64,000 nt of DNA. It comes from Pandoraea pnomenusa. GTDB lineage: Bacteria > Pseudomonadota > Gammaproteobacteria > Burkholderiales > Burkholderiaceae. Position 1 is the stretch's first letter. Each line of letters starts with the position of its first letter. The notes under the pieces were generated by a model, which saw nothing but the letters and a program-made list of their open reading frames with translations, searched no databases and was not told the origin of the DNA. Positions 14,520 through 41,299 of this stretch are shown in pieces. The stretch is from contig NZ_JBEBXS010000018.1 of the NCBI RefSeq assembly GCF_040391475.1, positions 7,591 through 71,590 of the forward strand, read 5' to 3'. Position numbers and translations under genes: made by a program.

Positions 14520-14558
14520 ACAGGACGTCTCCGTCGGATTGTGTTGTCGTTTTTATTT

Positions 14559-14575
14559 CTAAACAATTCGTTTAG
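14559..14575. promoter_or_regulatory. Dyad CTAAAC-aattc-GTTTAG upstream of the SDR gene (second TetR-type operator candidate)
   Basis: Read directly from the sequence. It shares the arms CTAAAC/GTTTAG with the perfect palindrome at 15323-15338. Confidence 0.5.
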
Positions 14576-14600
14576 TTTATCCACAACCCCGACGGCGGCG

Positions 14601-15299: not shown

Positions 15300-15322
15300 T
15301 CGTTGTGTCCGGACAAATACTA

Positions 15323-15338
15323 AACTAAACGTTTAGTT
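15323..15338. promoter_or_regulatory. Perfect 16-bp palindrome AACTAAACGTTTAGTT in the divergent TetR/aldolase intergenic region (probable TetR operator)
   Basis: The sequence equals its own reverse complement. It lies 24 nt upstream of the tetR start codon and 75 nt upstream of the aldolase ATG. Confidence 0.6.
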
Positions 15339-15412
15339 CATAAATAACGACACCGTATTGAAACACATCTGGCAGACAACCCTGCCAACGGTGCGTCGGC
15401 TCGGAGAACGGA

Positions 15413-16210: not shown

Positions 16211-16326
16211 TCTCCCAGCCTGGCCAGCTGGCGGCAGGATAGCTTTGCGAAGTGGCGTCAGGTAGTACGTATCAGGCAGTTGGTAGTCATCAGCACCCAA
16301 AAACAGAACCATGACGGAGACACCCC

Positions 16327-20343: not shown

Positions 20344-20892
20344 TCACCCCAGCGCGAGATCCGGGTGGGGCGTCGGTACGCCGTAGGCCCCACCGGCGTA
20401 CAGCAACGGCACGCGGTCGCAATGATGGAGATCCATCACTTCACCGACAAAAATGTAGTGATCGCCGCCTTCGTATTTGAACGCCAGGTCGCATTCGAAC
20501 CAGGCGACGCAGCCGTCGAAGAGCGGCATCCCCCCTCTTCCGCTGCGCCACTCCACGCCGTCGAAACGATCCGGCACCGGCGAAGCAAAGCGCGAAGCCA
20601 GCGGCATCTGATCGGCGCACAGCACGTTGATCGCGAACTTCCCCGATGACTCGAACACCTCCAGGCTGCGCGAGCGCTTGTTGATGCTCCACAGCACCAG
20701 TGGCGGAGAGAGTGACACCGAATTGAACGAATTGGCCGTCAGACCGACCGGTGTGCCGTCAGGCATGGTGGTCGTGACAATCGTCACCCCGGTCGCAAAG
20801 CGTCCCAGCGCGTGACGAAAATGACTGGCATCGAATGTCGTGTTCACGGGAGCCTCCTCAAGAAACGCCATGACAATTTCGCTTCGTTGCAT
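20344..20892 (-). CDS. Flavin reductase (NAD(P)H:flavin oxidoreductase, HpaC/HsaB-type)
   Basis: Flavin_Reduct signature FRHALGRFATGVTIVTT..GLTANSFNSVSLSPPLVLWSI. Last gene of the long minus-strand operon. The alternative ATG at 20871 is also possible. Confidence 0.85.
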   Translation of the reverse strand: MQRSEIVMAFLEEAPVNTTFDASHFRHALGRFATGVTIVTTTMPDGTPVGLTANSFNSVSLSPPLVLWSINKRSRSLEVFESSGKFAINVLCADQMPLASRFASPVPDRFDGVEWRSGRGGMPLFDGCVAWFECDLAFKYEGGDHYIFVGEVMDLHHCDRVPLLYAGGAYGVPTPHPDLALG

Positions 20893-20940
20893 CGCACGTC
20901 GATGACCGTCATGCGGCCCGGCGATGACTGAGTACCGTAT

Positions 20941-21369
20941 TCAGTGCGCGCGGGGTGCGGCGACCACGGCAGCGCCGCTCGCGACGGTTTTTTCCCCAAC
21001 GCGCGCCACGATGTCGCAACGCAGGCGCCGCCGGCCATCGCTGCCCGGCGAGCAATCGGCGACCGTGCCCACCACCATCACGACATCGCCCGGGCGCACC
21101 GGTGCGTTGAAGCGCGCTTCGATATCGACGATGGCCGCCGCAGGGCCGGCCCAGTCGGAGACCGCACGCCCCATGAATCCCATCGTGAGCATGCCGTGCG
21201 CAATGACGCCGCCGAGTCCTGCGTCTTGCGCGTAGCTCTGGTCGTAGTGAATGCGGTTGTAGTCGTCCGACGCTCCCGCGTAACGCACGAGTTGCGTGGT
21301 CGTCACCGCAGGCAGCGAGAGCGCGAAGGTGTCGCCGACGCGCGCGTGCAGAAGATGTGCCCCGTTCAT
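20941..21369 (-). CDS. MaoC-like (R)-specific enoyl-CoA hydratase, hot-dog subunit
   Basis: Start trimmed to the ATG at 21369. MaoC motif YAGASDDYNRIHYDQSYAQDAGLGGVIAHGML. There is a 4-nt ATGA overlap with the upstream partner gene. Confidence 0.85.
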   Translation of the reverse strand: MNGAHLLHARVGDTFALSLPAVTTTQLVRYAGASDDYNRIHYDQSYAQDAGLGGVIAHGMLTMGFMGRAVSDWAGPAAAIVDIEARFNAPVRPGDVVMVVGTVADCSPGSDGRRRLRCDIVARVGEKTVASGAAVVAAPRAH

Positions 21370-21851
21370 GCCAGACTCCTCGACGCCACTTGTTGCGCCG
21401 ATCGATAGACCGTGGTGCGCCGCACCGCGAACACACATTCGTGCGCCACGCCGTCTTGCTCCACCAGATAGCCGGACATCACCTGACGCAGCAACGACAT
21501 CGCACCGCGTGCGCCGTCCTTGTCGTCGATGCCGACCAGTTGCAACCGGCATTCGAAGCGCATGCCCGCGACGATCGGCCGGTGATAGTGAAACCCCATC
21601 TCGCCCGCCACAACGCGACGCCTGTCGAGCGTTGCCATCCACGGCGGATCCTGCGGCGCGCGAAAGCAGGTGGGAAACGTTGGCGGCGCGACAATGCTCT
21701 CGTATCCGTGACGACGGGCAAAGGCTTCGTCGCGATAGAGCAAATTGTCGTCGCCGATGGCGTCGGCGAACTTGCGGATCGCGCCGCGCTCGACCTCCAC
21801 CAGAAACGGTGGCGCGCTCGTGCCAATCAATGAACGGTCGATTTCAGTCAT
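21366..21851 (-). CDS. MaoC N-terminal-type hot-dog protein (non-catalytic partner subunit of a heteromeric hydratase)
   Basis: Start trimmed to the ATG at 21851 (MTEIDRSLIG..). GAIRKFADAIGDDNLLYRDEAFARRHGY..VAPPTF is typical of the N-terminal half of split or fused MaoC dehydratases. Confidence 0.75.
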   Translation of the reverse strand: MTEIDRSLIGTSAPPFLVEVERGAIRKFADAIGDDNLLYRDEAFARRHGYESIVAPPTFPTCFRAPQDPPWMATLDRRRVVAGEMGFHYHRPIVAGMRFECRLQLVGIDDKDGARGAMSLLRQVMSGYLVEQDGVAHECVFAVRRTTVYRSAQQVASRSLA

Positions 21852-21905
21852 CGTCACGCTCCTCGTTCGTCGCGCTATGGCGCCATGGCCGCCCGACACC
21901 GGTGG

Positions 21906-23072
21906 TCATTCGACACGCTCCACGATGGTCGCCGTGCCGAGTCCGCCGCCGCAGCACATCGACTGCAAGCCGTAGCGCGCGTCGCGTAATTCCAGCTCGT
22001 CGACAAGCCCGGCCATCAGGCGGGCACCGGTCGAACCGAGCGGATGCCCCACGGCGATCGATCCGCCGTTCACGTTCACGCGCGACAGCTCGGGCCGGAT
22101 CTCCGCGAGCCATGCGCCCAGCACCGAAGCGAACGCCTCGTTGATCTCGAACAGGTCGATGTCTTCGAGCGCCAGTCCGCTACGCGCGAGAATCTGCTGT
22201 GTCGCCGGAATCGGGCCGGTCAGCATCATGGCCGGATCGACGCCCACCACCAGTTGCGCGCGCAACACGGCACGCGGGCGCAGTCCGTATTCGCGGGCTT
22301 TTGCCGCCGTCATCATCAGCACGGCAGCGGCGCCGTCCGACACCTGACTCGCATTTCCCGCCGTCACACGGCCGTCTTCGCGAAACGAGGCCTTGAGCGA
22401 GCCCAGCTTCTCGAGCGACGTGTCACGACGCACGCCTTCGTCGCGCGTCAGCATCTCGCCGTCGGCCCCAACGACCGGCAGCAGTTGCCGTGCGAAGCGA
22501 CCGGCGTCGTGCGCGGCAGCACTCAATGCATGGCTGCGCAACGCCAGCTCGTCGAGATAGGAGCGGTCCAGCTTCCAGTGCGCGGCGATGCGCTCGGCGG
22601 CGATGCCCATCGACGGCATGGAGAAGCGCTCGACCAACGACTCCGGATACCGACGCCCGTATTTGGTGTCGTCGTTACCGCCCTGCGTGGTGGACATCAA
22701 CTCGACGCCACCGGCGATCACCACGTCGCAGGTGCCGCTGCGGATCAGGTTGTCGGCGAAGTGAATCGCCTGCTGCGAGGAGCCGCAGGCACGCTGCACG
22801 GTCGTGCCCGGCACGGTGAACGGAAAGTCGGCCATGAGCAGCGCAGTGCGTGCGATGTTGCCGGCCTGCTCGCCCACCTGCGTGGCGCATCCGGCCACCA
22901 CATCGTCGACCGCGTCGGCAGGCACGCCGGTGCGCGCGAGTACCGCACCCAGCACCTGCGACAGCAGCGCGGCGGCGTGCCACTGACGCAGCGCCCCGCC
23001 CCGTCGTCCGACGGGCGTTCGCACGACATCGACGATGACCGGGTCCCGATCGGCAAGCGCGGAAGCTTTCAT
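21906..23072 (-). CDS. Acetyl-CoA C-acyltransferase (degradative thiolase)
   Basis: Start trimmed to the ATG at 23072 (MKASALADRDPVIVDVVRTPVGR). Active-site segments VQRACGSSQQA, NVNGGSIAVGHPLGSTGARL, CCGGGLGTA. Confidence 0.9.
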   Translation of the reverse strand: MKASALADRDPVIVDVVRTPVGRRGGALRQWHAAALLSQVLGAVLARTGVPADAVDDVVAGCATQVGEQAGNIARTALLMADFPFTVPGTTVQRACGSSQQAIHFADNLIRSGTCDVVIAGGVELMSTTQGGNDDTKYGRRYPESLVERFSMPSMGIAAERIAAHWKLDRSYLDELALRSHALSAAAHDAGRFARQLLPVVGADGEMLTRDEGVRRDTSLEKLGSLKASFREDGRVTAGNASQVSDGAAAVLMMTAAKAREYGLRPRAVLRAQLVVGVDPAMMLTGPIPATQQILARSGLALEDIDLFEINEAFASVLGAWLAEIRPELSRVNVNGGSIAVGHPLGSTGARLMAGLVDELELRDARYGLQSMCCGGGLGTATIVERVE

Positions 23073-24256
23073 TCTCCCGACTCCCCGGACTTCGCCGCCC
23101 ACTGACTGTTCTTCCGCCCGAGCAGATGGCCCGCGATCATGTTCTTGTGAATCTGCAGCGTACCGCCGTAGATCGAACCGCCGCGCACTTCGCGGTAGCG
23201 GCCTTCCACCGGGTATTCCGTCATGTAGCCGTAACCGCCGAGCAGTTGAATCGCGTCGTCGCAAATCTCCTTGGCGGCCTGCGCAACGTAGACCTTGGCC
23301 ACCGATGTCTCCAGCGGCGACGGCAAGCCGCTGGCCGTGTTGCACGCGGCGCGATAGGTCAGCAACTGCGCCGCTTCGAGCTTCACCTTCATGTCGGCCA
23401 GCATCCACTGCAACCCCTGAAAGTCGGCCAGCTCGCGGCCGAACTGCTGGCGCTCCTGCACGTACTGCAGTGCGAAATCGAACGACGCCTGCGCCGAGCC
23501 CAGCATGCGCGAGATGCTGCCCAGACGCTCGACGTTGTACACGCTGATGAGCTTGGCGAACGCCCGGCTCTCCGCGAGGATGTTCGCCTTCGGCACCCGG
23601 CAATCGTCGAAGTAAAGCTCGTACTGACGCTCGCCGGCCATGTTCACCGTGCCACTGCTGCACGAGAAGCCCGGCGCGTCGTGCGGCACCATGATCGCGC
23701 CGATGTCGCTCGCCCGCCCGGTGTTGCCGAAACGGCAGTACAGCATCGTGTAGTGATGCCCCTTGGCCGCACTGATGAAGATCTTCTGGCCGTTGATGAT
23801 GACGTCGTCGCCCTCGATCCGGGCGCGGGTCTTCATCGCGGTGGCCGCCGACCCGGCGTCCGGTTCCGTGATGCCGATGGACACGCCGATCTCACCGCGC
23901 GCGACGCCGCCGACGAAACGCGACTTCTGCGCCTCGGTCCCCAGTTCGAGCACGGCGCCGATGGCCCCCGTCGACGTGCGATGCGCCAGGCCGCCCAGCG
24001 TCGAATCGACACGCTGGATGGTCTGGATCAGCAGCAGCGTCTCCAGCAAAGGCAACCCCATGCCGCCGTACTCCTGCGGCATGTTCAGCGCGAGCAATCC
24101 GGCTTCGGCCATTTGCCGGCGCAGGCGTTGCAACGGCGCGAAGTCGCCCTGCGTTTCGGCCTCATGGGCCTCCTTCGCCAGCGGCAGCAACTGACGGCAC
24201 AATTTCTCGGTCGCGTCGATCAGTTCGCGCTGCGATCCGGTGAGCTGAAAATCCAT
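23069..24256 (-). CDS. Acyl-CoA dehydrogenase (LCAD/IVD-like variant)
   Basis: Full ACAD architecture. The C-terminal motif reads SIYGGTLQIHK instead of the MCAD-type YEGTxEI, so Gly replaces the usual catalytic Glu, as in LCAD-type enzymes. Confidence 0.9.
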   Translation of the reverse strand: MDFQLTGSQRELIDATEKLCRQLLPLAKEAHEAETQGDFAPLQRLRRQMAEAGLLALNMPQEYGGMGLPLLETLLLIQTIQRVDSTLGGLAHRTSTGAIGAVLELGTEAQKSRFVGGVARGEIGVSIGITEPDAGSAATAMKTRARIEGDDVIINGQKIFISAAKGHHYTMLYCRFGNTGRASDIGAIMVPHDAPGFSCSSGTVNMAGERQYELYFDDCRVPKANILAESRAFAKLISVYNVERLGSISRMLGSAQASFDFALQYVQERQQFGRELADFQGLQWMLADMKVKLEAAQLLTYRAACNTASGLPSPLETSVAKVYVAQAAKEICDDAIQLLGGYGYMTEYPVEGRYREVRGGSIYGGTLQIHKNMIAGHLLGRKNSQWAAKSGESGE

Positions 24257-24298
24257 GGAAACTCTCGAAGTCTTGATTGACGAAGGCGGCGTCCCGAC

Positions 24299-25477
24299 TT
24301 AACGCTGAAGCGTCGAGTCGAACGATTCGCCCAGTTCGGCCGCACCCACGATCTGCGCCGTCTTGTCGTGGCCAACGTGCAGGATGTGCGTGTTCAGATC
24401 CCGGATCAGGCGCGCCAGCGGAAACTCGTCGAACAGCGCCGTCGAACCGGCCAGCATGATCAACGTGTGCGACATCTCGAGCGCCGCATGCGCGCAGATA
24501 GACTTGGCCTGCATCGAGATCAGCTCGGCGCGCTGGACATCGCCCGCGCGCCACGCATCGATCGCGTTCTCGAACACCACCTGTGCGCCGTGCAATTGCG
24601 TCTTGGCTTCACCCATGCGCAGTTGCACGAACGGGTCCTTGCCGCGGCCACGTTCGACGAGACTCTTGCGCACCCACTCATAGGCGCCCTCGATCATGCC
24701 GAGATAGTTCGCCGTGAAGCCGAGGTGGAAGCGTCCCTGCCAGCGCCCGCGCGGATACACGCCCGGCTCGCCCAGCACATGCAGTTCGTCGATGAAGACG
24801 TCGTTCAGATAGATCTCCGGGCTGGGGCACACGCGCATACCCGTCGGGCGATACCAGTCATGATTGACGGTAAGCCCTTCCATACCCGGCTCGACGATGA
24901 CCATCAGGTGCGACTTGAAGTATTCCGTTTCGCCTTCGATGGTCGCGAACACGATGGCAACGCCGTTCTCGTAGCCATTGGTCGCGTAATTCTTGTTGCC
25001 GTTGACGATGTAGCCGCCGTCGACCTTCTTCGCGGTCGTCTTGAGCACGTACATGTGCTTGCGGCCTGCTTCGCTGCCCACGAACGACGACACGCTCATC
25101 TTCTGCGTCATCGGCTTCACGAAACGTTCGCGCTGCGCGTCGGTACCCAGCTCGTCGATCGCCCATGCCACGTGGTTCTGCACCTGCATGCAGTGGGCGG
25201 TGCCCGGAGACACGCGCGCCACGCGACGCATCCCTTGCAGGAACGTCGCCGGATCGGCCGACATCACATTGCTGCCGAGGCCGCCGTGTTCCTTGCGCAC
25301 GGTCGCCGTCAGCAGACCAAGCTCGAACAGATCCTGCAGGTTCTCGAACGGCATGGCGGCCGCGTCGTGATATTCGCGCTCACGAGCCGGAAAGCGGCTT
25401 TGCACGACGTCTTCGAGCGCCGCGAGCACATCGGGGTTGCCCTGCCTGGACAACGAAGGGGTTTCCGCAAAATTCAT
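24299..25477 (-). CDS. ACAD-fold protein of the 'type 2' class, probable flavin-dependent monooxygenase oxygenase component
   Basis: Start trimmed to the ATG at 25477 (RBS aggagg). ACAD-like length and fold cues are present. The C-terminal region reads ..ARLIRDLNTHILHVGHDKT.. where dehydrogenases carry RDAR..YEGTxEI. No catalytic Glu motif is visible. Confidence 0.7.
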   Translation of the reverse strand: MNFAETPSLSRQGNPDVLAALEDVVQSRFPAREREYHDAAAMPFENLQDLFELGLLTATVRKEHGGLGSNVMSADPATFLQGMRRVARVSPGTAHCMQVQNHVAWAIDELGTDAQRERFVKPMTQKMSVSSFVGSEAGRKHMYVLKTTAKKVDGGYIVNGNKNYATNGYENGVAIVFATIEGETEYFKSHLMVIVEPGMEGLTVNHDWYRPTGMRVCPSPEIYLNDVFIDELHVLGEPGVYPRGRWQGRFHLGFTANYLGMIEGAYEWVRKSLVERGRGKDPFVQLRMGEAKTQLHGAQVVFENAIDAWRAGDVQRAELISMQAKSICAHAALEMSHTLIMLAGSTALFDEFPLARLIRDLNTHILHVGHDKTAQIVGAAELGESFDSTLQR

Positions 25478-26547
25478 GTTGCCTCCTGAAAGGGGACCGC
25501 CTGAGCCTCCGGAGCGGAGATGTTGGCGGTTTCTATCGCCTTCGGGCCGATGGCGCGCGCAGCGGTGTTCGCTGTCGCTACGGGAATCGTTTCCGCGAAA
25601 TGACACGTCACCCAGTGGCGCGGCGCGATCTCCCGCGCGACTGGCTTTTCTTCACGACAACGCGCTGCCGCATGCGGACAACGCGGATGAAACGGGCATC
25701 CGGCGGGCGGATTCATGGGCGACGGAATCTCGCCGGCGACCGCCTGCGAGCCGCTGCCGCCGCGTGCGTCGACCGAAGCGATCAACGCCTGCGTGTACGG
25801 ATGTCGCGCGCCGCGCATCAACGTCGCCGTATCCGCCACTTCCATGAACTCGCCGAGGTACAGCACGCCGATGCGCTGACTCATGTAGGCCACGACGGCG
25901 AGGTCGTGCGAGATCAGCAGATACGTGAGATCGAGCGTGCCCTGCAGGTCCTTGAGCAGATTCAGGATCTGGGCCTGAATCGATACGTCGAGTGCCGACA
26001 CGGGCTCGTCGAGAATCATGCAGCGCGGGCTCAGGCTCAACGCGCGGGCGATGGCCACACGCTGACGTTGGCCGCCGGAGAGTTCGTGCGGGAATTTCCG
26101 CCGTGCGCCACCCGGCAAGCCGACGAGTTGCAGCAACTCGTCCACGCGACGGGCACGGCCTGCGTCGTCGAGCGTGCGATGAATACGCAGCGGTTCGTCG
26201 ATGATCCGGCCGATGCGCATGCGGGGATTGAGTGCGCTGTACGGGTCTTGCAGCACCGGTTGCAGAACACGGTGGAAGTGCTCGCGTGCCGCGCCATTCA
26301 ATTGCTGAATGTCCTGCCCGTCGACCTTCACCTCGCCGCTCGTGGCCGGCTCGGCCAGCATCAGCATCTTGGCGATGGTGCTCTTGCCGGAACCGGATTC
26401 GCCCACCAGCCCGAAGGTCGCTCCCGGCTCGACATCGAACGTCACCCCTGCAACGGCATTGAGCGGGCGCGCACGTCCCAGCAGACCACGACGCACGTCG
26501 TAGGTCTTTCTGAGGTCTCGCACGGAAAGATACGGTTGCGACATCAC
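25474..26547 (-). CDS. ABC transporter ATP-binding protein (DppF/OppF-like)
   Basis: Walker A GESGSGKST, signature LSGGQRQRVAIARAL, Walker B MILDEPVSALD, oligopeptide-type C-terminal extension (PMNPPAGCPFHPRC). Confidence 0.9.
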   Translation of the reverse strand: MMSQPYLSVRDLRKTYDVRRGLLGRARPLNAVAGVTFDVEPGATFGLVGESGSGKSTIAKMLMLAEPATSGEVKVDGQDIQQLNGAAREHFHRVLQPVLQDPYSALNPRMRIGRIIDEPLRIHRTLDDAGRARRVDELLQLVGLPGGARRKFPHELSGGQRQRVAIARALSLSPRCMILDEPVSALDVSIQAQILNLLKDLQGTLDLTYLLISHDLAVVAYMSQRIGVLYLGEFMEVADTATLMRGARHPYTQALIASVDARGGSGSQAVAGEIPSPMNPPAGCPFHPRCPHAAARCREEKPVAREIAPRHWVTCHFAETIPVATANTAARAIGPKAIETANISAPEAQAVPFQEAT

Positions 26548-27659
26548 GCCACCTCCTTGCGCACGTGCGGCGCACCGCGCAGCGCCTCATCACCGATGCC
26601 GCCGATGCCGTCGGTTCCGCCCGTTGCTGCGTGACGGCCAACGCCCTGCGCCGCGCCCTTTTCGGAGGCCGACCACATCTGTACGGTCTGCCAGCACGCA
26701 CTGCGGCGTGCACCGTCCTGCCACTCGAACCAGTCGGGATACTGATCGCGACACTGCCGCGTGGCGAGCGCGCAGCGCGGCGCAAACCGGCACCCCTGCG
26801 GCCATTCGGTCAGCCCGGGCTGTTGCCCCGGAATCGCTTCGAGCCGCTTCTCGTAACGCCCCAGCGACGGCACGGCGCGAAGCAGGCCTGCGGTGTACGG
26901 ATGCGCCGGACGCGCAAACACGTCGGCGATCGGGCCAGACTCGACGATGCGTCCACCGTACATGATGGCCACGTCGTCGCAGAACTGTGACGCGAGATGC
27001 AAATCGTGCGTCACGAAGATCAGCGCCATGTTGCGCTGCTGTTGAAGCTCCCGGAGCAGCTTGAGAATCTGCAACTGCACGGTGACGTCGAGCGCCGTGG
27101 TCGGCTCGTCGCAGATCAGCAATTCCGGGGAGAGTGCGACATTGATGGCGATGGACACGCGTTGACGCATGCCGCCGCTGAACTGGAACGGGTAGCTGTC
27201 GAGACGTTCCAGCGCGGCCGGAATCTTCACGCGCTCCAGTACATCGACGCTCAATCGGCGCAATTCGGCCTTGTCGCGAATGCCCTGGTGTACGCGGAAG
27301 ATCTCCGCGACCTGATCGCCGATCGTCAGCAGCGGATTGAGAGACGTCATGGCGTCCTGCAGGATCATGCCGATCTCGCGACCCCGGATCTTCGCCATCT
27401 CCGCCGCCGAGAGCTTCGTCAGATCGCGGCCCTTGTAATGCACTTCGCCCTGCACGACGCGGCCATTCGACGGCAGCAGGCCGAGCAGCGTGTTGCACGT
27501 CATGCTCTTGCCCGAGCCGGACTCGCCGACCAGCGCCAGCGAGCGTCCGGCGTCGACGCGCAAGCTGACGTTGTCGACCGCCGTGACCACGCCGTGCTTG
27601 CCGCGCAGCATGGTCGTGAGGTTGCGTGCCTCGAGCAGGGGTTGGAAGGCTGTCGTCAT
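26544..27659 (-). CDS. ABC transporter ATP-binding protein (DppD/OppD-like)
   Basis: Start trimmed to the ATG at 27659 (MTTAFQPLLEARNL..). Walker A GESGSGKSM, signature FSGGMRQRVSIA, Walker B LICDEPTTALD. Confidence 0.9.
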   Translation of the reverse strand: MTTAFQPLLEARNLTTMLRGKHGVVTAVDNVSLRVDAGRSLALVGESGSGKSMTCNTLLGLLPSNGRVVQGEVHYKGRDLTKLSAAEMAKIRGREIGMILQDAMTSLNPLLTIGDQVAEIFRVHQGIRDKAELRRLSVDVLERVKIPAALERLDSYPFQFSGGMRQRVSIAINVALSPELLICDEPTTALDVTVQLQILKLLRELQQQRNMALIFVTHDLHLASQFCDDVAIMYGGRIVESGPIADVFARPAHPYTAGLLRAVPSLGRYEKRLEAIPGQQPGLTEWPQGCRFAPRCALATRQCRDQYPDWFEWQDGARRSACWQTVQMWSASEKGAAQGVGRHAATGGTDGIGGIGDEALRGAPHVRKEVA

Positions 27660-28558
27660 TACCACCCCCTCGACATGGTGGGACTGAGGCGATCGCGCAA
27701 TGCGTCGCCGAGCTGATTGGCGAGCAGCACGGTGACCATCAGGACCATGCCCGGAATCCCGCAGATCCACCATGCGGTTTCGAGATAGCCCCGACCGTCG
27801 GCGATCATCGCGCCCCACGACGGCGTCGGCGGTTGCACGCCGAGCCCCAGGAACGACAGCGTGGCTTCCAGGATGATGATGGTGCCGATGTCGAGCGTGG
27901 CGAGCACGATGAACGTGTTGATCACGTTCGGCACGATGTGCGCGAACATGACACGCACGCGCGACGCACCGGCGAGCTTCGCGAGCAAGACGAAATCGCG
28001 TGAGCGCAGCGACAGCGCTTCCGAGCGCGTGACCCGGGCGAAGCGCGCCCAGTTGGCCAGGCTCAATACGATGACCAGATTGAACACGCTGAAGCCGATG
28101 GCGCCCACGAGCACCAGCGCGAGAATCACCGCCGGCAGTGCCAGCTGGATGTCGGCAATGCGCATCGCCACCGCGTCGACCCATCCGCCGAGATAGCCCG
28201 CCGCAATGCCGAACAGGCTGCCGAACACGCCCGCCATGAGTACCGCACAAAAGGCGACGTACAGCGAAATCTGCGACCCCCAGATCACACGCGACAGCAG
28301 GTCGCGCCCGAGTTGGTCGGTGCCGAACCAGTGCGCCGCCGAAGGCGGTTTGAGGATGTCGCTCAACGAAATCGCATTCGGATCGTACGGTGCGAGCCAC
28401 TGCGGTGCGAGGGCCACGACGACAAGCGCCAGCGCGAGGGCCATGCAGACCCATAGCTGGACGTCGCGCCAGAGGCGGCGACGCGCACGAACTTCCGGCA
28501 CCGGCACACTGGCTTCGGCCGGACGCTGTCGCAAATCGAGGGGAGTAGCGTCATGCAT
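27659..28558 (-). CDS. ABC transporter permease (DppC/OppC-like)
   Basis: Multi-TM protein with a BPD_transp_1-type core (..RSEALSLRSRDFVLLAKLAGASRVRVMFAHIVPN..). Confidence 0.9.
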   Translation of the reverse strand: MHDATPLDLRQRPAEASVPVPEVRARRRLWRDVQLWVCMALALALVVVALAPQWLAPYDPNAISLSDILKPPSAAHWFGTDQLGRDLLSRVIWGSQISLYVAFCAVLMAGVFGSLFGIAAGYLGGWVDAVAMRIADIQLALPAVILALVLVGAIGFSVFNLVIVLSLANWARFARVTRSEALSLRSRDFVLLAKLAGASRVRVMFAHIVPNVINTFIVLATLDIGTIIILEATLSFLGLGVQPPTPSWGAMIADGRGYLETAWWICGIPGMVLMVTVLLANQLGDALRDRLSPTMSRGW

Positions 28559-29468
28559 AGCGAATCCTCGGATCGACGTAGGCGTAGAGCACGTCCACGG
28601 CCAGGTTGAGCAAGGTGAAGATCAGCGCGCCCACGGTGACTGCGGCCTGCACGACCGTGTAGTCGAGATTCGAGATCGAATCGAGAATCAGGCGACCGAT
28701 GCCCGGCCACGAGAAGATGAACTCGACCGAGACAGCGCCGCCCATCAGAATGCCGAACTGCAATGCCGTGAAGGTAATCATCGGCAGCAGCGCGTTGCGT
28801 AAGGCGTGGCGGAACACGATCGTGCGCTCCGGCACGCCCTTGATGCGCGCGAACTTGATGTATTCCGTATCGAGCACTTCGGACATGCTCGAGCGCGTGA
28901 GCCGCATGATCCCGGCCGCCGAGTACCAACCGAGCGCCACGGCAGGCATCACGAGATGCGAGAACGTGCCGTAGCCGTTGGTCGGAAACCACGACAACTG
29001 GATCGAGAAGAGGCGGATGAAGAGCAGACTGAACAGGAACGGCGGCGCCGCCTGCCCCAGCACCGCGAAGAGCTTGGCGCACTGATCCACCGCACCGCCG
29101 CGACGCACCGCCGCGATGGCACCAAGCGGAACGCCCACCAGAATGCCCAGCCCGAGCGCCGACGTCGTGAGCAGCAGCGTGGGCCCCAGCGCGCCGAGTA
29201 CCACGTCGAGCGCAGGCCGCGAGAAGCGATACGACATGCCGAGCTGGCCCTGCAGCAGATGCCAGAGGTAGCTCACGTATTGCACGGCCACCGGGCGATC
29301 CAGGCCCATCTGGTGACGGAGCAGCGCGCGGTCGGCTTCGGTCGCTTCCGGGGGCAGCATCAGGTGCGTCGGATCGCCGATCAGCCGTACGATCAGGAAG
29401 ATCACCAGCGTGACGAGCAGCACCGTGATCAGCGACTGCGCCACTCGACGCGTGAGATAGCGAATCAT
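28551..29468 (-). CDS. ABC transporter permease (DppB/OppB-like)
   Basis: Start trimmed to the ATG at 29468 (MIRYLTRRVAQSLITVLLVTLVIF..). EAA-type loop ..MSEVLDTEYIKFARIKGVPERTIVFRHALRNALLP... Confidence 0.9.
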   Translation of the reverse strand: MIRYLTRRVAQSLITVLLVTLVIFLIVRLIGDPTHLMLPPEATEADRALLRHQMGLDRPVAVQYVSYLWHLLQGQLGMSYRFSRPALDVVLGALGPTLLLTTSALGLGILVGVPLGAIAAVRRGGAVDQCAKLFAVLGQAAPPFLFSLLFIRLFSIQLSWFPTNGYGTFSHLVMPAVALGWYSAAGIMRLTRSSMSEVLDTEYIKFARIKGVPERTIVFRHALRNALLPMITFTALQFGILMGGAVSVEFIFSWPGIGRLILDSISNLDYTVVQAAVTVGALIFTLLNLAVDVLYAYVDPRIRYA

Positions 29469-31264
29469 GCGGGCGTCTCCCCGTCCTGTGCGGCGTCGTT
29501 GTCCATCAGATTGCGTGTGGCACGATCGCGCAGCTCCAGCTTGCGAATCTTCTGGCTGCCGGTCAGCGGCCAGGCGTCGATGAACTCGACGTAGCGGGGC
29601 ACCTTGTAGCTCGCGATATGCTCGCGGCAGTACTGCTGCAGCGCGAAGGGCGAGATGTCTGCCCCGTCCTGGCACTCGATGTACGCGTAACCCACTTCGC
29701 CGAGGCGTGGGTCGGGCACACCGACGACGACCGCCTGACGCACGCCCGGATACGTCTTCAGGAAGACCTCGATCTCCTGCGTCGCGACATTGAAGCCGCC
29801 CGGCTTGATCATCTCCTTCACGCGCCCGCGGTACGTGAGGTAACCCTCGGTGTCGAGCTCGCCGAGATCGCCGGTAAGCAGCCAGCCCTGCGCGTCGATG
29901 GCTTTGCGATCTTCTTCGGGCATGCGGTAATAGCCCTTCATGACCACGTAGCCCGAAATGCAAATCTGGCCGATCGATCCGGCCGGCAGCGCCTGACCGG
30001 TCTCGATATCGGTAATGCGCACTTGCACGCCTCGCACCGGGCGCCCGTTCGTGCGGGAACGCTTCTCGTACGGGTCGTCCCAGCGGGTGCGCACCACCGC
30101 GTTCGAAGTCTCCGACATGCCGTAGGCACTCACCAGCTCCGGCACGTCGAGCGTGCTGCTCACCCACTCGAACGACGCCGTGGGGAGCGGTGCGCCCGTG
30201 CCGGTGCGCAGGCTCGACAGGTCGTACTGTCCGATGTCGGCAAACGCCTTGAGATCCTGAACGATGGTGTCGACGAAGAAGCTGACCGTGATGTGTTCGC
30301 GCTCCACCAGTTCACAGAAGAGCCTGGGCGAGAACTGATCGGCGATGACCATGGCGGCGCCGGACAGCGCCATCGCCAGCGTGTAGAACGTACCCGTCGC
30401 CGTGAAGAGCGGTACGCACGAGAGGTAGCGGTCCTGCGCTGTGAGGCGCAGGCACTGCGCCGCATAATGGTTGTTCGCGAGCAGCGCACCGTGGCGCACC
30501 ATCGCCCCCTTCGGGAACGACGTCGTGCCCGACGTGTACAGGATCTGCGCGACGTCGTCCGGGGCGACCTGCGCGAAGCGTCGCGCCAATGCGCCGTCGT
30601 CCATGCAGCGACGACCACGGGCTTCGATGGCGTTGAAACACTCCATGCCGGACGGCAGGGTGCGATCCGTGGAAGACAACCCGATGACACGGCGAAGCGC
30701 CGGCATGCGCTCACATTGCCATGCGCCCCGGCGCTGCATCGTCCACTCGGGATCGAGTTGCGCGAGGATGTCGAAGTAACGCACGCCACGCTCGGCCGAT
30801 CCGCCACGCTCCTGCACGATCAGCGTGGTCGCCTCGGATTGCCCCAGCACGTAGGCAACATCGCTGTCGCGGAACCGGGTGTTCACCGGCACCAGCACCG
30901 CGCCGATGAGCGGCACGGCCCATCGGGCAATGAGCCATTCGGTGCCGTCGGACATCCACAGCGCCACGTTCTCGCCGGGCCCCACGCCCAGCGACATCAA
31001 GCCGCGAGCGAACGCATGAATGCGTTGCGCCAACTGCGAGAACGTCAGGCGCGTCTCGCCGTGCACGACGGCCTCGCGATCGCCGTGAGCGTTCGCGATC
31101 CACGTCAGCGCACTCGCGAAGGTCTCGCGGGTCCAGTCGATCGCGTCGCCCGAAGGCGCCCCAACGTCTGCCAGGGCCGGCGTCGCTGTCGGGGCCAGTA
31201 CGCTATCGTCGTCTCGATTCATGGTCTGATTCATCCGTTCGCGTTCGCTCGGGGGCCGGATCAC
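29465..31264 (-). CDS. AMP-dependent acyl-CoA synthetase/ligase embedded in the ABC-transporter gene block
   Basis: AMP-binding motif ILYTSGTTSFPKGAMVRHG. Later motifs GQICISGYVVMKGYY, WLLTGDLG, GRVKEMIKPGGFNV. The GTG at 31264 overlaps the SBP stop codon. An ATG 30 nt downstream (31234, MNQTMN..) is an alternative start. Confidence 0.85.
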   Translation of the reverse strand: MIRPPSERERMNQTMNRDDDSVLAPTATPALADVGAPSGDAIDWTRETFASALTWIANAHGDREAVVHGETRLTFSQLAQRIHAFARGLMSLGVGPGENVALWMSDGTEWLIARWAVPLIGAVLVPVNTRFRDSDVAYVLGQSEATTLIVQERGGSAERGVRYFDILAQLDPEWTMQRRGAWQCERMPALRRVIGLSSTDRTLPSGMECFNAIEARGRRCMDDGALARRFAQVAPDDVAQILYTSGTTSFPKGAMVRHGALLANNHYAAQCLRLTAQDRYLSCVPLFTATGTFYTLAMALSGAAMVIADQFSPRLFCELVEREHITVSFFVDTIVQDLKAFADIGQYDLSSLRTGTGAPLPTASFEWVSSTLDVPELVSAYGMSETSNAVVRTRWDDPYEKRSRTNGRPVRGVQVRITDIETGQALPAGSIGQICISGYVVMKGYYRMPEEDRKAIDAQGWLLTGDLGELDTEGYLTYRGRVKEMIKPGGFNVATQEIEVFLKTYPGVRQAVVVGVPDPRLGEVGYAYIECQDGADISPFALQQYCREHIASYKVPRYVEFIDAWPLTGSQKIRKLELRDRATRNLMDNDAAQDGETPA

Positions 31265-32826
31265 TTCCAGCTGAGGCTGCGCAGGTTGTAGTACCCGCTG
31301 CCGTGCTGCGGCTCCCAGTTCAGCTTCACGTCCTGCGCAAAGGTGTAATAAAGCTCGGTAATCAGCACGGCGTGGCCGTCGTCATGCAGCAGCCGGCCGA
31401 TCTTCTTGAAGATCTCGTCGCGTTGCTCGCGCGAGGTGGCGGCGTCGCCCTCTGCGACCAGCTTTTCGACTTCCGGGTTGTAGTAATCGGACCACGTACC
31501 GTCTTTCGTCGCCGCACCGCTGATCGGGTGCACCGGATCGTAGATGGCGTTGGAGAACTGCATCATCGTCATCGGACCGCCCTTGTGCGTGTTGTTCAGG
31601 CGACTCCATGCGGCGTAGTCGATGACCTTGACGTTGGTCTTCACGCCCACCGCCGACCAGTACGCCGCGATCACTTCGCACAGCTCCTTCGGGTTGTCCG
31701 TCGGACACAGCAGATCGGTCGTGAAGCCGTTCGGATAACCGCCCTGCGCCAGCAGCTTCTTGGCCTGCGCCGGATCGTACGGATAAGGCTTGATCGTGCG
31801 ATCGACACCATAGGGATAGCTCGACGACACATACGACGACATTTGCGCACCCACGCCATGCAGTGCCTGATTGATGATCGCCTTGGTATCGAGCGCATAG
31901 TTCAGCGCCAGACGCACTTCTCGCTTCGAGAGCGGCGTGCCGGGCACGTTCGAGTACAACCGCACGGCCAGCGGGCTGCCCACGGGCACCGACTTCACGG
32001 TGAGACCGGCGTTCGACTTCAGGCGCGCCACGTCCACGCTCGGCACGTAGTCGATGACGTCGACTTCACCGTTGAGCAGCGCGTTGATACGGCTGCTCGC
32101 CTCGGGAATCACCTTGAAGACGAGACGCTTGATGCCCGGCTTCGGGCCCCAGTACCCATCGAATCGATCGAGCGTGACCGACTGCCCGATCTTCTGCTCG
32201 ACGAACTTGTACGGGCCCGAACCCACCGGCGCCCGCGCGAACGCCTCGGGCGACGCCAGCGATTCGGTATAGGCCTTGGGCACCAGCAGGAGGTAGCCGG
32301 CGATCTTGTTGAGGAATGCGCCGTCCTGACGCTTCAGATGAAACACGACAGTCGTGTCGTTCGGCGCATCGACGTGATCGACCAGATTGGCGAAGTAAGG
32401 CCGCCGGGTGCTCTTTGTCTCCGGCGCGACGATCCGCTCCAGCGAGTACTTCACGTCCTTGGCCGTAAGCTTCGCGCCGTTGTGAAACTTGACGTCGTTG
32501 CGCAGCGTGAAGGTGTACTGCAGGCCGTCAGGGGCGATCTTCACGCCGGTGGCCACGCTCGGCTTGAGGTTGCCGTCGATGTCGAACGCGTAAAGCGTGT
32601 CGAACAGCTGCCAGCCGTAGCGCTGCGAGTCGCCCGTCGCGGCCACCTGGCCGTCGAGGTTGTTGATGTCCTTGCCCACGGCGAAGACAACGGTATCGCG
32701 ATCGACCGCCGGTTTGCCACCGATGGCCATCGACGCCGTCGGCGACAGGAGCGCCGCGCACAATGCGATGCCCGATCCGAGCCACGCCATCTTGCGCGGC
32801 CACGCTTGCAATGCCCGTGTGTGCAT
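31261..32826 (-). CDS. ABC transporter substrate-binding protein, family 5 (peptide/opine/nickel type), paralog 1
   Basis: Signal peptide (..LLSPTASMA). SBP_bac_5 hallmarks ..GDSQRYGWQLFDTLYAFD.., KFHNGAKLTAKDVKYSLER, ..AAWSRLNN... Confidence 0.9.
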   Translation of the reverse strand: MHTRALQAWPRKMAWLGSGIALCAALLSPTASMAIGGKPAVDRDTVVFAVGKDINNLDGQVAATGDSQRYGWQLFDTLYAFDIDGNLKPSVATGVKIAPDGLQYTFTLRNDVKFHNGAKLTAKDVKYSLERIVAPETKSTRRPYFANLVDHVDAPNDTTVVFHLKRQDGAFLNKIAGYLLLVPKAYTESLASPEAFARAPVGSGPYKFVEQKIGQSVTLDRFDGYWGPKPGIKRLVFKVIPEASSRINALLNGEVDVIDYVPSVDVARLKSNAGLTVKSVPVGSPLAVRLYSNVPGTPLSKREVRLALNYALDTKAIINQALHGVGAQMSSYVSSSYPYGVDRTIKPYPYDPAQAKKLLAQGGYPNGFTTDLLCPTDNPKELCEVIAAYWSAVGVKTNVKVIDYAAWSRLNNTHKGGPMTMMQFSNAIYDPVHPISGAATKDGTWSDYYNPEVEKLVAEGDAATSREQRDEIFKKIGRLLHDDGHAVLITELYYTFAQDVKLNWEPQHGSGYYNLRSLSWK

Positions 32827-32859
32827 TGAATTCTCCGAAGAAAGACGCCGGACGAAGAC

Positions 32860-33633
32860 TTACCGCAGTGTCTCCGGGCCGCCTTTGACATAGATGATTT
32901 GCCCCGAAACGAACGACGCGTCTTCACTGCAGAGGAATGCCACGACATTGGCGATGTCCCGCGGCACACCGACGCGGCCGAGCGGAATGCTCTTGGCACG
33001 CTGCCGTTTGTATTCCTCGGGATCGATGCCGCGACGCTCTGCGGTCTGACGCGTCATTTCGGTGTCGACGAACCCCGGCGCCACCGCGTTGACGTTGATG
33101 TTGAAGGGGCCGAGTTCGATGGCGGCCGTGCGCGTGAAGGCTTGCAAACCCGCCTTGGCCGACGAGTAGTTCGCCTGCCCGCGATTGCCGAGTGCCGATG
33201 TGGAAGAGAGATTGACGATCTTGCCGCTGCGTTGCTCGACCATATGTCGTTGCGCGGCGCGCGTGCACAGGAAAGTGCCGCGCAAGTGGACGTTCATGAC
33301 GCGATCCCAGTCGTCGACCGACATCTTGAACAGCAGGTTGTCACGGGTGACGCCTGCATTGTTCACGAGGACGTCGAGTCCGCCGAGTTGCGCGATCACC
33401 TGCGCAAACAGCGTCTCGACCTGCGCCTCGTCGGTCACGTCGCATCCGAAGCCTACGGCCTCGAATCCGCCGTCACGACGTAATGCGTCAGCGGCCGTTT
33501 GTGCAGCGTCTGCCGAGATATCGCAGATCGCCACACGCGCACCCTCCTGCGCGAACCGTTCGGCGGTCGCGTAGCCGATGCCACGCGCGCCTCCCGTCAC
33601 TAGGACCACCTTTCCCTGGAAGCGATTGCTCAT
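32860..33633 (-). CDS. SDR family oxidoreductase (FabG-like 3-oxo/3-hydroxyacyl reductase)
   Basis: Start trimmed to the ATG at 33633 (MSNRFQGKVVLVTGGARGIGYA). Also NNAG and YSSAKAGL. First gene of the long minus-strand operon. Confidence 0.9.
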   Translation of the reverse strand: MSNRFQGKVVLVTGGARGIGYATAERFAQEGARVAICDISADAAQTAADALRRDGGFEAVGFGCDVTDEAQVETLFAQVIAQLGGLDVLVNNAGVTRDNLLFKMSVDDWDRVMNVHLRGTFLCTRAAQRHMVEQRSGKIVNLSSTSALGNRGQANYSSAKAGLQAFTRTAAIELGPFNINVNAVAPGFVDTEMTRQTAERRGIDPEEYKRQRAKSIPLGRVGVPRDIANVVAFLCSEDASFVSGQIIYVKGGPETLR

Positions 33634-33992
33634 GCGCTTGCGTCTCCTGGTTGTGGCGCTGCCTGATCTATGCAGGCAGTCGTCGTAATGCAAACCAGTC
33701 TAGTCACGCGTTGCGATATGGTCAATATTTGAAACAAATAACTTTGCACAAATTTCATCAGGGATAACTCTCAGTTCATTCGACACACCATCGGTTATCT
33801 TTATAACGCAAGCGAAAGCCAGTCTTTATATGGATTACTACTTAGCTAATCACGACAATTCCACTTGCATCACCTGCTGAAACTGGCGCATCATTTATTC
33901 CACTATTTGAACGTTTACGCGACAGACCCCGAAACATCATGCAGAACGCGGCGCCACTCACCCGCTCCTTGTCGCCTGACGCGCCTCGCGCG

Positions 33993-35594: not shown

Positions 35595-35665
35595 GTGTCG
35601 ACGACTCCTAGTTGTCCACTGCACATCAATTCTTAAACCCACACCATTACCCGGAGGAAACCGAG

Positions 35666-37547: not shown

Positions 37548-37804
37548 TTCGACCTCATTATGTATGTTCACATATTGGAATTACAAAAGCATCGAAAACC
37601 CCACCCGGATTTGTACCAATTCTTCTGGCACGTTGTTGAAATATCCGCTATAAAAGCTAGGAAACATGGTTCACGATGTCAATAAGCGATCATACCGACG
37701 CGACATCCTCGCTCACGCAGCGCACCATATAATCGTTATCTATTTCAATATATGGAAATCCGGAAAGCCGAACGCTCCGGATACATCGCACCGCCAGGAA
37801 ACTC

Positions 37805-41234: not shown

Positions 41235-41299
41235 CGGGTGACGGTATCGACACAGTTTCGGGAGCGTTCCCGACCATGACAACGCAGGAGGTAGGAGAC

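Follow-up and report, generated by a model that had tools for sequence, protein, structure and literature searches.

A conserved operon of Pandoraea pnomenusa joining a Dpp-type importer with an embedded CoA ligase to acyl-CoA oxidation enzymes and a putative two-component flavin oxygenase

Operon Structure and Importer Genes

A 64,000-nucleotide stretch of Pandoraea pnomenusa DNA (NCBI RefSeq assembly GCF_040391475.1, contig NZ_JBEBXS010000018.1, positions 7,591 to 71,590 of the forward strand; hereinafter, the window) was analyzed with respect to 13 minus-strand genes, g1–g13, which run from position 33633 down to position 20344 (Table 1). They encode an ATP-binding cassette (ABC) importer with an acyl-CoA ligase placed among its genes, a set of acyl-CoA oxidation enzymes, a protein with the acyl-CoA dehydrogenase (ACAD) fold (g8), and a flavin reductase (g13). 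It was concluded that the locus very probably encodes a dedicated importer joined to CoA-dependent catabolism with a two-component oxygenase; the substrate is presumed to be a small carboxylate carrying sulfur (thioether, thiol, sulfinate or sulfonate), a proposal held with slightly less than even confidence. All family assignments and cut-offs given below were obtained from Pfam and NCBIfam scans (NCBIfam release of June 2026).

The original prediction, made from the sequence alone, had described 13 open reading frames (ORFs) with overlapping or nearly abutting ends, and listing and translation of the ORFs confirmed them at the same coordinates. The domain scans upheld the family calls for all 13 genes; for the MaoC gene g12, the family was retained, and the end, given as about 20909, was moved to the true stop at 20941. 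Recomputation of the 12 junctions agreed with the described coupling: eight of them overlapped, by 4 nt at g2/g3 (GTGA), g3/g4 (ATGA), g6/g7, g7/g8, g9/g10 and g11/g12, by 8 nt at g4/g5 and by 1 nt at g5/g6, and the other four were separated by short gaps (33 nt at g1/g2, 42 nt at g8/g9, 6 nt at g10/g11 and 48 nt at g12/g13). Alternative starts lying 30–48 nt further downstream were noted for g3 (31234), g11 (21851) and g13 (20847), and an identical public contig (L001) carries gene calls that agree with the shorter versions of g11 and g13, the g11 product having 161 aa there. An identical copy of g8 was found on a contig of assembly GCA_040395615.1.

Upstream of g1, there was a 359-nt AT-rich gap (GC 0.485 versus 0.647 in the operon) containing a promoter-like site, and a perfect stem-loop was located over the stop codon of the preceding flavoprotein gene. 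Between positions 19200 and 38000, eight terminator-like sites were found, whereas 12.5 were expected from shuffled sequences. Given the gap with its promoter-like site, the hairpin and the terminator count, the boundaries of the operon are plausible, and so is transcription as a single unit between about 33.7 and 20.3 kb. Housekeeping genes (bc1 complex, Tat, his operon) were found in the right part of the window; thus, the locus is chromosomal.

The products of g2 and g4–g7 constituted the domain set of a Dpp/Opp-type importer, namely, a substrate-binding protein (SBP), two permeases and two ATPases with oligo_HPY domains (Pfam). The g3 ligase gene shared the GTGA tetranucleotide with the g2 stop and the ATGA tetranucleotide with the g4 start, and the ligase reached no NCBIfam equivalog cut-off. 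The g2 protein was not an orthologue of the known binding proteins NikA (177 bits against a cut-off of 393), DppA (175 against 1005), GsiB (161 against 594) or OppA (77 against 947), and a second family-5 SBP encoded upstream of the operon was likewise far below the NCBIfam cut-offs for peptide, glutathione and nickel binders. The closest relatives of g2 with solved structures were unnamed SBPs, AgaA and DppA (155–177 bits); the Protein Data Bank (PDB) relatives yielded no clue to the ligand.

The ACAD-Fold Protein g8

Three Pfam ACAD domains were present in g8, and the catalytic Glu was missing at both positions known for this fold: Val occupied the position of E376 of medium-chain ACAD and Gly the helix-G position of isovaleryl-CoA dehydrogenase (IVD), both replacements being conserved throughout the family. 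The C-terminal motif was RDLNTHILHVGHD, and a DszC-like R-D-x-x-T-H-x-L-H motif was identified within this very conserved family, whose invariant stretches were RWQG[RK][FY]HLG, TH.LH.GHD and the C-terminal FDSTLQR. The best NCBIfam model was SfnB (93 bits against a cut-off of 431), and the DszC model gave 78 bits against 850. An AlphaFold2 model of g8 (pLDDT 83.6) showed TM-scores of 0.78–0.86 to ACADs and to TdsC/DszC in Foldseek comparisons, the top matches, DszC/TdsC included, having 21–23% identity.

Because dehydrogenases and oxygenases interleave in both the sequence and the fold comparisons, similarity does not settle to which of the two kinds g8 belongs. An oxygenase is favored by the missing catalytic base, by the flavin reductase encoded in the operon and near many relatives, and by the existence of relatives that have no g9-type dehydrogenase as a partner. 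On these grounds, g8 and g13 are regarded as a putative two-component flavin oxygenase.

In four Pandoraea species and in Paraburkholderia susongensis, proteins with 95–98% identity to g8 were found. A pattern scan of 185,579 species genomes yielded about 100 stretches with relatives, belonging to Alpha- and Betaproteobacteria from soil, sludge and the sea. The g8 family at present carries no annotation beyond 'acyl-CoA dehydrogenase family protein'.

Conservation of the Locus and Its Variants

The neighborhoods of g8 relatives were compared in 80 genome loci, onto which all proteins of the window were mapped; neighbors within 10 kb were counted. Six genera, represented by at least 13 species genomes, showed the gene order g1–g12 or g2–g12, with the ligase gene between the SBP and permease genes. 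The carriers were Pandoraea (four species), Paraburkholderia susongensis, Caballeronia, Variovorax, Pusillimonas, a plasmid of Imbroritus and uncultured betaproteobacteria, and protein identities across these genera went down to 55–85%. The comparison across Burkholderiaceae called for by the original prediction thus showed the order of importer and enzyme genes to be kept between genera, and the ligase gene wedged between SBP and permease genes, which had been singled out as unusual, proved to be conserved and is no peculiarity of a single genome. Since this order recurs across genera, the arrangement is beyond chance, and the importer and the enzymes can be considered one unit. The claim of a dedicated uptake-plus-degradation unit therefore stands on synteny and on the ligase inside the transporter block, whereas the bulky or branched substrate that had been claimed along with it does not.

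An ordinary peptide importer that merely lies beside an unrelated fatty-acid-type degradation operon would account for importer parts that are typical of the Dpp/Opp type. This explanation deserves hardly any credence: the ligase gene lies within the transporter block with start/stop overlaps on both sides, its position and the surrounding enzyme genes are conserved across six genera, and the DppA, OppA, GsiB and NikA models were all far below their cut-offs.

Among the neighbors of g8 relatives, the most frequent were genes for a short-chain dehydrogenase (SDR; at least 55% identity), found in 50 of the 80 loci, and for MaoC (46 loci). A g9-type ACAD was encoded in 34 loci and absent from the other 46, including those of Roseovarius, Herbaspirillum and Cupriavidus. 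A family-5 SBP was found in 29 loci, the flavoprotein in 28, a flavin reductase in 27, a thiolase and a biotin carrier in 26 each, a carboxyltransferase and a biotin carboxylase in 24 each, and a tripartite ATP-independent periplasmic (TRAP) transporter in 13. In Alphaproteobacteria (Xanthobacter, Pseudolabrys, Roseovarius and others), g8 relatives were surrounded by genes for carboxylase parts, a crotonase and the flavoprotein; in this version, a TRAP transporter stands in place of the ABC importer, and the SDR, g8, MaoC and biotin carboxylase genes form one string.

These counts bear on the possibility that g8 is a non-catalytic partner of g9 in an α2β2 dehydrogenase resembling ChsE1–ChsE2, the flavin reductase being incidental. 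The two genes are adjacent, Glu is missing in g8 and kept in g9, the MaoC-N/MaoC pair is architecturally similar to ChsH1/ChsH2, and several versions of the operon have no flavin reductase gene. Nevertheless, such a heteromer is very unlikely, because g8 relatives have no g9-type neighbor in 46 of the 80 loci; moreover, the g8 family is very conserved, the ACAD active-site region included, its members are repeatedly accompanied by flavin reductase genes in otherwise unrelated settings, and all steroid models were far below their cut-offs.

A long form of the operon was detected in three Pusillimonas genomes and two betaproteobacterial metagenome-assembled genomes (MAGs). Here, three extra genes, encoding a second ligase (about 60% identical to g3), a multi-domain rhodanese of ~500 aa and a paralogue of g8 (36–39% identity), are inserted between the MaoC and flavin reductase genes; none of the three was present in the window. 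In Imbroritus, a rhodanese gene follows the thiolase gene. The long-form paralogue (loci L013, L014 and L018–L020, at ~17.7–20.4 kb) has Glu ('VYPAER') at the Glu position of g9, where g8 itself has Gly ('VYPRGR'), and the two proteins may differ in chemistry, as judged from this residue. In one of the MAGs (L014, ~14474–17583), a family-5 SBP gene precedes the second ligase gene, so that two SBP–ligase pairs occur in one operon.

Several further peculiarities were noted in individual loci. In Caballeronia sp. LZ035 (L003, 7022–7939), which has no flavin reductase gene, the g5 orthologue was called as two ORFs of 98 and 192 aa, which may reflect a frameshift or a decaying transporter. The P. 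susongensis locus (L008) was as close to the window (86–97% per protein) as the Pandoraea loci were (L007, L009 and L070), suggesting a recent transfer of the locus or a taxonomic mislabel. Fused ribBA genes (DHBP synthase/GTP cyclohydrolase II) were found beside g8 relatives in 17 of the 80 loci (L006, L088 and 15 more alphaproteobacterial loci); their presence in a catabolic cluster is unusual and may reflect a high flavin demand.

Acyl-CoA Oxidation Enzymes and Linked Genes

A complete β-oxidation set was encoded in the operon: the g3 ligase, the g9 ACAD, the g11/g12 MaoC pair, the g1 SDR and the g10 thiolase. The g1 protein exceeded the cut-off of the FabG subfamily model NF009466 (258.8 against 222), and g10 passed TIGR01930 for acetyl-CoA C-acyltransferase (423 against 240.55). 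The g11 protein remained under the cut-off of the HadA model (59.6 bits). The models nearest to g13 were those of the reductase parts of HpaH-C1 and HsaB, whose cut-offs were not reached.

The best PDB matches of g9 were butyryl-CoA dehydrogenase Bcd (231 bits), short-chain ACAD (207 bits) and the 3-sulfinopropanoyl-CoA (3SP-CoA) desulfinase 5af7 (200 bits). In g9, 'VYNVER' stands where the desulfinase has 'AYNSQR'. As Glu is present at the IVD position, where the desulfinase has Gln, g9 was considered a true dehydrogenase with an alternative base and not a desulfinase; the latter was ruled out also by the score of 281 against a cut-off of 600. The motif YEG is replaced in g9 by YGG ('IYGGT'); variants of YEG are known in ACADs and include the YGG of pimeloyl-CoA dehydrogenases (PMC8360864). 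A decarboxylating alkylmalonyl-CoA dehydrogenase similar to IaaF was unsupported, since g9 has YGG and not GGG and retains the helix-G Glu (PMC8360864). The earlier description of g9 as similar to long-chain ACAD thus held for the position of the catalytic Glu and not for the overall similarity, in which butyryl- and short-chain ACADs were closest.

The unit of 13 genes had been described correctly; its extent had not, because linked genes on both sides were omitted (Table 1). Directly upstream lies the gene of an FAD_binding_2 flavoprotein, which precedes the SDR gene in Caballeronia, Pusillimonas and Imbroritus too. This protein was below the cut-off of every NCBIfam model (for example, KstD, 200 against 789; TcuA, 147 against 369), and its PDB relatives gave no clue to the ligand. 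Further upstream are the genes of a stand-alone 73-aa biotin carboxyl carrier protein (BCCP), the second SBP, which has no permeases of its own and may be the remnant of an SBP–ligase pair, a carboxyltransferase, a crotonase, a regulator and a biotin carboxylase. The carrier protein was 44% identical to the product of a Biotin_lipoyl gene of the Pseudolabrys cluster, and the Caballeronia cluster is also flanked by a 73-aa Biotin_lipoyl gene. The carboxyltransferase scored 349 bits with the PccB and 12S subunit models versus 220 and 216 bits with those of the beta subunits of methylcrotonyl-CoA carboxylase (MCC) and geranyl-CoA carboxylase (GCC), respectively. In Caballeronia, Pusillimonas, Imbroritus and Variovorax, too, the operon is faced at its 3' end by a convergent IclR gene.

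Table 1. Genes and other features identified at the P. pnomenusa locus (window coordinates)
Feature	Position	Strand	Basis and remarks
IclR-family regulator 1, convergent with the 3' end of the operon	19446..20327	+	HTH_IclR + IclR_C
g13, NAD(P)H:flavin reductase, last operon gene	20344..20892	-	Flavin_Reduct, 151.5 bits; start possibly 20847
g12, MaoC (R)-specific hydratase subunit	20941..21369	-	MaoC_dehydratas, 80.8 bits
g11, hot-dog subunit, MaoC-N/HadA-like	21366..21899	-	FAS1_DH_region, 89.7 bits; start possibly 21851
g10, thiolase	21906..23072	-	Thiolase_N + Thiolase_C
g9, short-chain-type ACAD, catalytic Glu on helix G	23069..24256	-	PDB matches and motif
g8, ACAD-fold protein, putative oxygenase of a two-component flavin monooxygenase	24299..25477	-	All ACAD domains, including Acyl-CoA_dh_2
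g7, DppF-type ATPase	25474..26547	-	ABC_tran + oligo_HPY
g6, DppD-type ATPase	26544..27659	-	ABC_tran + oligo_HPY
g5, DppC-type permease	27659..28558	-	BPD_transp_1 + OppC_N
g4, DppB-type permease	28551..29468	-	BPD_transp_1 + BPD_transp_1_N
g3, AMP-forming acyl-CoA ligase, between SBP and permease genes	29465..31264	-	AMP-binding, 280 bits, + AMP-binding_C
g2, family-5 periplasmic binding protein, 521 aa	31261..32826	-	SBP_bac_5, 296 bits
g1, FabG-like SDR, 257 aa, first operon gene	32860..33633	-	adh_short_C2, 241 bits
Promoter-like site	33697..33725	-	TTGACC-17-TAGACT in the 359-nt gap upstream of g1; consensus match only
Perfect 11-bp stem-loop	33974..33998	-	gcctgacgcgc-gag-gcgcgtcaggc; over the flavoprotein stop codon; no T-run follows
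FAD_binding_2 flavoprotein (KstD- or fumarate/urocanate-reductase-like)	33993..35642	-	FAD_binding_2, 153 bits; directly upstream of the operon
Stand-alone BCCP, 73 aa	35666..35887	+	Biotinylation motif VESMKME
Second family-5 binding protein, without permeases of its own	35949..37571	-	SBP_bac_5, 301 bits; 56.6% identical to g2
Acyl-CoA carboxyltransferase, PccB type	37805..39343	+	Carboxyl_trans, 388 bits
Crotonase-family enoyl-CoA hydratase	39389..40177	+	ECH_1, 209 bits; no equivalog cut-off reached
IclR-family regulator 2	40317..41234	+	HTH_IclR + IclR_C; 49% identical to regulator 1
Biotin carboxylase without a fused carrier domain	41297..42652	+	Biotin_carb_N, CPSase_L_D2 and Biotin_carb_C only

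Other genes of the window were recorded as neighbors. Beside the first IclR gene, at 15362–19229 on the plus strand, there are genes for a class II aldolase-family protein, a transporter of the major facilitator superfamily and a further acyl-CoA ligase (27.7% identical to g3). These three genes (15.4–19.2 kb) are present on the identical contig L001 and absent from the loci of the four Pandoraea species and P. susongensis; they were therefore taken as unrelated neighbors, and a strain-specific insertion seems likely. Plasmid pAtK84c likewise has a class II aldolase-family gene in the cluster of its g8 relative. Tandem autotransporter genes (1644–8561, plus strand; 1139 and 1164 aa) each encode an autochaperone and a β-barrel, and one of the products additionally carries Chlamydia PMP repeats. 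A hybrid sensor kinase of 1237 aa (8961–13559) with periplasmic SBP_bac_3 domains and PAS, HisKA/HATPase and receiver domains is encoded divergently from a LuxR-type response regulator. Just past the biotin carboxylase gene, the G+C content is lower (42900–46000; 0.57–0.585 versus about 0.64), and the ORFs at 42900–43619 and 44059–45069 had no Pfam match; this stretch may be foreign DNA at the edge of the locus.

Sulfur-Related Neighbors of the g8 Family

Rhodanese orthologues were encoded within 10 kb of g8 relatives in 29 of the 80 loci, in both Alpha- and Betaproteobacteria, TauD-family proteins in 17, and luciferase-like monooxygenases in about eight; at least one neighbor of these three kinds was present in 49 loci. 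In Herbaspirillum, Cupriavidus pampae and Bradyrhizobium lablabi, g8 relatives with 47–55% identity are encoded together with related Dpp-type importers, and the clusters of these taxa additionally contain genes for luciferase-like monooxygenases, TauD, a MetQ-like lipoprotein and a protein of PF03601, presumably a sulfate-exporter family. On plasmid pAtK84c, a g8 relative is accompanied by a TauA-like binding protein and a luciferase-like monooxygenase.

In Paracoccus, the genes of a g8 relative (57% identity) and a flavin reductase adjoin that of a 3SP-CoA desulfinase (661.6 against the cut-off of 600) carrying Gln at the catalytic position. This cluster also encodes a family-III CoA-transferase, the acrylyl-CoA reductase AcuI (487 against 440), an IlvX-like thiamine pyrophosphate enzyme and an aldehyde dehydrogenase, and no cupin thiol dioxygenase was found among its gene calls. 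A comparable gene set is that of the thiodipropionate cluster of Variovorax paradoxus TBEA6, which comprises acdA, act, ilvX, a semialdehyde dehydrogenase gene, ech genes and mdo (PMC6370202). Rhodanese genes, in turn, belong to the mercaptosuccinate clusters of Variovorax and Advenella (PMC5373536). Both the rhodanese-bearing long operon and the sulfur context of the g8 family were missed in the original prediction, and they indicate another class of substrate than the one it had proposed.

The same neighborhoods raise the possibility of sulfur scavenging, in which the importer and g8/g13 would serve to recover sulfur from an organosulfur compound, the CoA enzymes having no role beyond disposal of the carbon skeleton. 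The g8 relatives with 47–52% identity and their Dpp-type importers do lie beside luciferase-like monooxygenases, TauD and MetQ- or TauA-like proteins, an arrangement resembling sulfate-starvation clusters. In the window, however, the operon has a full β-oxidation set with a thiolase and a linked carboxylase, the flanking regulators are of the IclR family and not sulfur regulators, and no luciferase-like monooxygenase or TauD gene belongs to the operon. Scavenging was therefore considered improbable for this locus, although it overlaps with the preferred explanation, the catabolism of a sulfur-carrying carboxylate, and the difference between them is mainly physiological.

Comparison with Known Systems

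None of the enzymes of the locus reached an NCBIfam equivalog cut-off, and no description of the cluster was found in a full-text literature search, in agreement with the earlier statement that no named pathway could be recognized. The Atu/Liu and steroid pathways, which had been cited as echoes together with a bulky or branched carboxylate, did not withstand the comparison, because g9 is of the short-chain type, the carboxyltransferase is of the PccB type, and the steroid models were far below their cut-offs (KstD, 200 against 789; HsaA, 55 against 450; HsaB, 159 against 230; steroid thiolase, 389 against 515; CasG, 240 against 750). At the family level, the steroid systems (ChsE, ChsH, FadA5, KstD, HsaAB) share with the locus a ligase, adjacent ACAD-fold genes, a heteromeric MaoC pair, a thiolase, an FAD_binding_2 flavoprotein and an ACAD-fold oxygenase with a reductase. 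They differ in that no other steroid genes are present here, g9 is of the short-chain type, and the host lineages and neighbors are different; steroid or bile-acid degradation was rejected on the model scores and the gene context. The Atu/Liu systems likewise link a biotin-dependent acyl-CoA carboxylase and a crotonase to an ACAD with Glu at the IVD position, but their carboxyltransferase is of the MCC/GCC type and their BCCP is fused, whereas a PccB-like subunit and a separate 73-aa BCCP are found here. Removal of a β-methyl branch by such a route was rejected because the carboxyltransferase is PccB-like, no BCCP is fused to the biotin carboxylase, and no domain of a 3-hydroxy-3-methylglutaryl-CoA lyase was found among the genes scanned at 13.7–46.6 kb.

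A parallel to the proposed chemistry is the catabolism of 3,3'-thiodipropionate and 3,3'-dithiodipropionate in V. paradoxus TBEA6 and Advenella mimigardefordensis DPN7 (Mdo, Act or SucCD, Acd desulfinase, Ech-20/30), which is also a CoA-dependent breakdown of small organosulfur acids in Burkholderiales involving an ACAD-fold enzyme with non-standard chemistry. In that pathway, hydratases act on a thioether-CoA and propionyl-CoA is produced (PMC6370202, PMC5373536). The best NCBIfam model of g9 was the 3SP-CoA desulfinase of this pathway, although at the score given above and with the desulfinase having Gln in place of Glu. Unlike the thiodipropionate clusters, the window contains no Mdo, no Act and no TTT-type uptake system, and the gene content and order differ; conversely, the ABC importer with its embedded ligase, the thiolase, the MaoC pair and the putative two-component oxygenase go beyond those clusters.

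With regard to g8, the pairs DszC/TdsC–DszD and MsuC–MsuE, as well as SfnB, combine a Glu-less ACAD fold with a similar histidine-rich C-terminal motif and a separate flavin reductase, and relatives of g8 occur beside luciferase-like monooxygenases in sulfur-acquisition clusters. In contrast to these enzymes, g8 is located in a CoA-thioester pathway with an importer and not beside partners of the DszA/SsuD type.

In the demethylation branch of dimethylsulfoniopropionate (DMSP) degradation, DmdB, DmdC and DmdD convert 3-methylthiopropionate through a ligase, an ACAD and a hydratase that frees the thiol from a 3-thio-acyl-CoA. The same ligase–ACAD–hydratase logic applies to the locus by mechanistic analogy only: the DmdB, DmdC and DmdD models were absent from the NCBIfam matches listed, the hydratases here are of the MaoC type and not the DmdD crotonase, and an oxygenase, a thiolase, a carboxylase and an ABC importer are additional. 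The pimFABCDE operon of Rhodopseudomonas palustris also combines a ligase, ACAD, hydratase/dehydrogenase and thiolase with a linked binding-protein-dependent importer. However, the PimC and PimD models gave 70–77 bits against cut-offs above 620, and the transporter family differs; to our knowledge, genes for an oxygenase, a carboxylase or a MaoC pair are not part of the pim operon. The YGG variant of g9 is shared with pimeloyl-CoA dehydrogenases (PMC8360864).

Two further substrates were considered. Thiophene-2-carboxylate was no more than a lead: the alphaproteobacterial version of the cluster is present in Xanthobacter tagetidis and in an Aquamicrobium MAG, but no fewer than four other Xanthobacter species have it just as well, and gene assignments for this compound were not available. 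For the degradation of biotin or lipoate side chains, no genetic literature was found for comparison.

Proposed Function of the Locus

The gene content, the translational coupling, the conserved synteny, the Glu-less g8 and the sulfur-type neighbors of its relatives are direct observations, on which the following scheme was built; we infer the order of its steps. The Dpp-type importer (g2, g4–g7) would take up the compound, and the g3 ligase, encoded within the transporter block, would trap it as a CoA thioester. The enzymes g9, g11/g12 (as a heteromeric (R)-specific hot-dog hydratase), g1 and g10 would then perform one β-oxidation-type turn via (R)-3-hydroxyacyl-CoA, and g8, supplied with reduced flavin by g13, would oxygenate the heteroatom or a neighboring carbon, after which the C–S bond would break by elimination or by collapse of a hydrated product. 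The flavoprotein, the crotonase and the three-part PccB-type carboxylase would process a short acyl-CoA, probably a C3 compound (acryloyl- or propionyl-CoA), and the two paralogous IclR regulators would govern the two halves of the locus. As candidate substrates, one may speculate about thiodipropionate-like thioethers, homologues of 3-mercapto- or 3-methylthiopropionate, and sulfo- or sulfino-acids, and, equally speculatively, about side chains of the lipoate or biotin type and thiophene or thiolane carboxylates.

It should be noted that a number of observations weigh against this scheme. The g8 protein is far below the cut-offs of the SfnB, DszC and MsuC types and fails every curated oxygenase cut-off, and phmmer and Foldseek rank true ACADs and DszC/TdsC as equally close to it. 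The Caballeronia, Variovorax and Imbroritus versions of the operon have no flavin reductase gene. With respect to sulfur, the window has no rhodanese gene, Pfam scans of the called genes revealed no desulfinase, sulfite-handling or sulfonate gene, and TauD and luciferase-like enzymes are not specific to sulfur. Furthermore, C3 thio-acids need neither a thiolase nor a full β-oxidation turn, and IclR control and an importer of the peptide/opine/metallophore family suit many non-sulfur acids.

A serious rival is the same architecture acting on a sulfur-free alicyclic, aromatic-substituted or otherwise hindered short acid. In that case, g8/g13 would hydroxylate carbon, similar to HsaAB or HpaH, and desaturation of a ring ketone would fall to the KstD-like flavoprotein. 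Operons for aromatic and alicyclic acids typically have IclR regulators, the window contains no sulfur-handling gene, and the nearest models of g13 are reductases of phenol- and steroid-type two-component hydroxylases; weak matches connect the flavoprotein with KstD and 4-oxocyclohexanecarboxylate desaturases and the SDR with hydroxycyclohexanecarboxylate dehydrogenases. All these matches, however, are far below cut-off, the Pfam scans of the locus revealed no gene for ring cleavage or a ring hydrolase, and g9 and the carboxyltransferase are of the short-chain type. A sulfur-free substrate would also leave unexplained the rhodanese of the long operon and the rhodanese, TauD, luciferase-like monooxygenase and desulfinase neighbors of the family. 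Overall, this rival was considered unlikely, although it has to be taken seriously.

Returning to the sulfur-carrying substrate, the locus might represent a new CoA-dependent route for aliphatic organosulfur acids, in which an importer with a built-in ligase is combined with an oxygenase of the g8 family acting on sulfur, in two lineage-specific wirings; as a whole, this is a possible but doubtful generalization. In such a route, the g8 family would take the place of the cupin thiol dioxygenase Mdo or prepare a thioether for elimination by activating it. Depending on the lineage, the importer/oxygenase pair would be wired either to β-oxidation and the three-part carboxylase, for the use of carbon, or to luciferase-like monooxygenases and TauD, for sulfur scavenging. 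The building blocks are all of known kinds; their combination and the g8 family are unassigned.

If the proposed function is correct, the locus would be a catabolic module of its own that has not been described previously, and a function would be provided for a sharply conserved ACAD-fold family now annotated only generically. Bacterial cycling of organosulfur carbon would gain a CoA-linked branch beside the DMSP, thiodipropionate and mercaptosuccinate routes, and the genetic embedding of a CoA ligase in an ABC importer would mean that uptake is coupled to thioesterification. The genes would also be candidates for the degradation of thioether and sulfo-acid additives and for the production of thiol precursors of polythioesters. 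Should the substrate prove to be sulfur-free, the locus would still be a well-defined orphan pathway, with the two binding proteins and the ligase as handles for assays.

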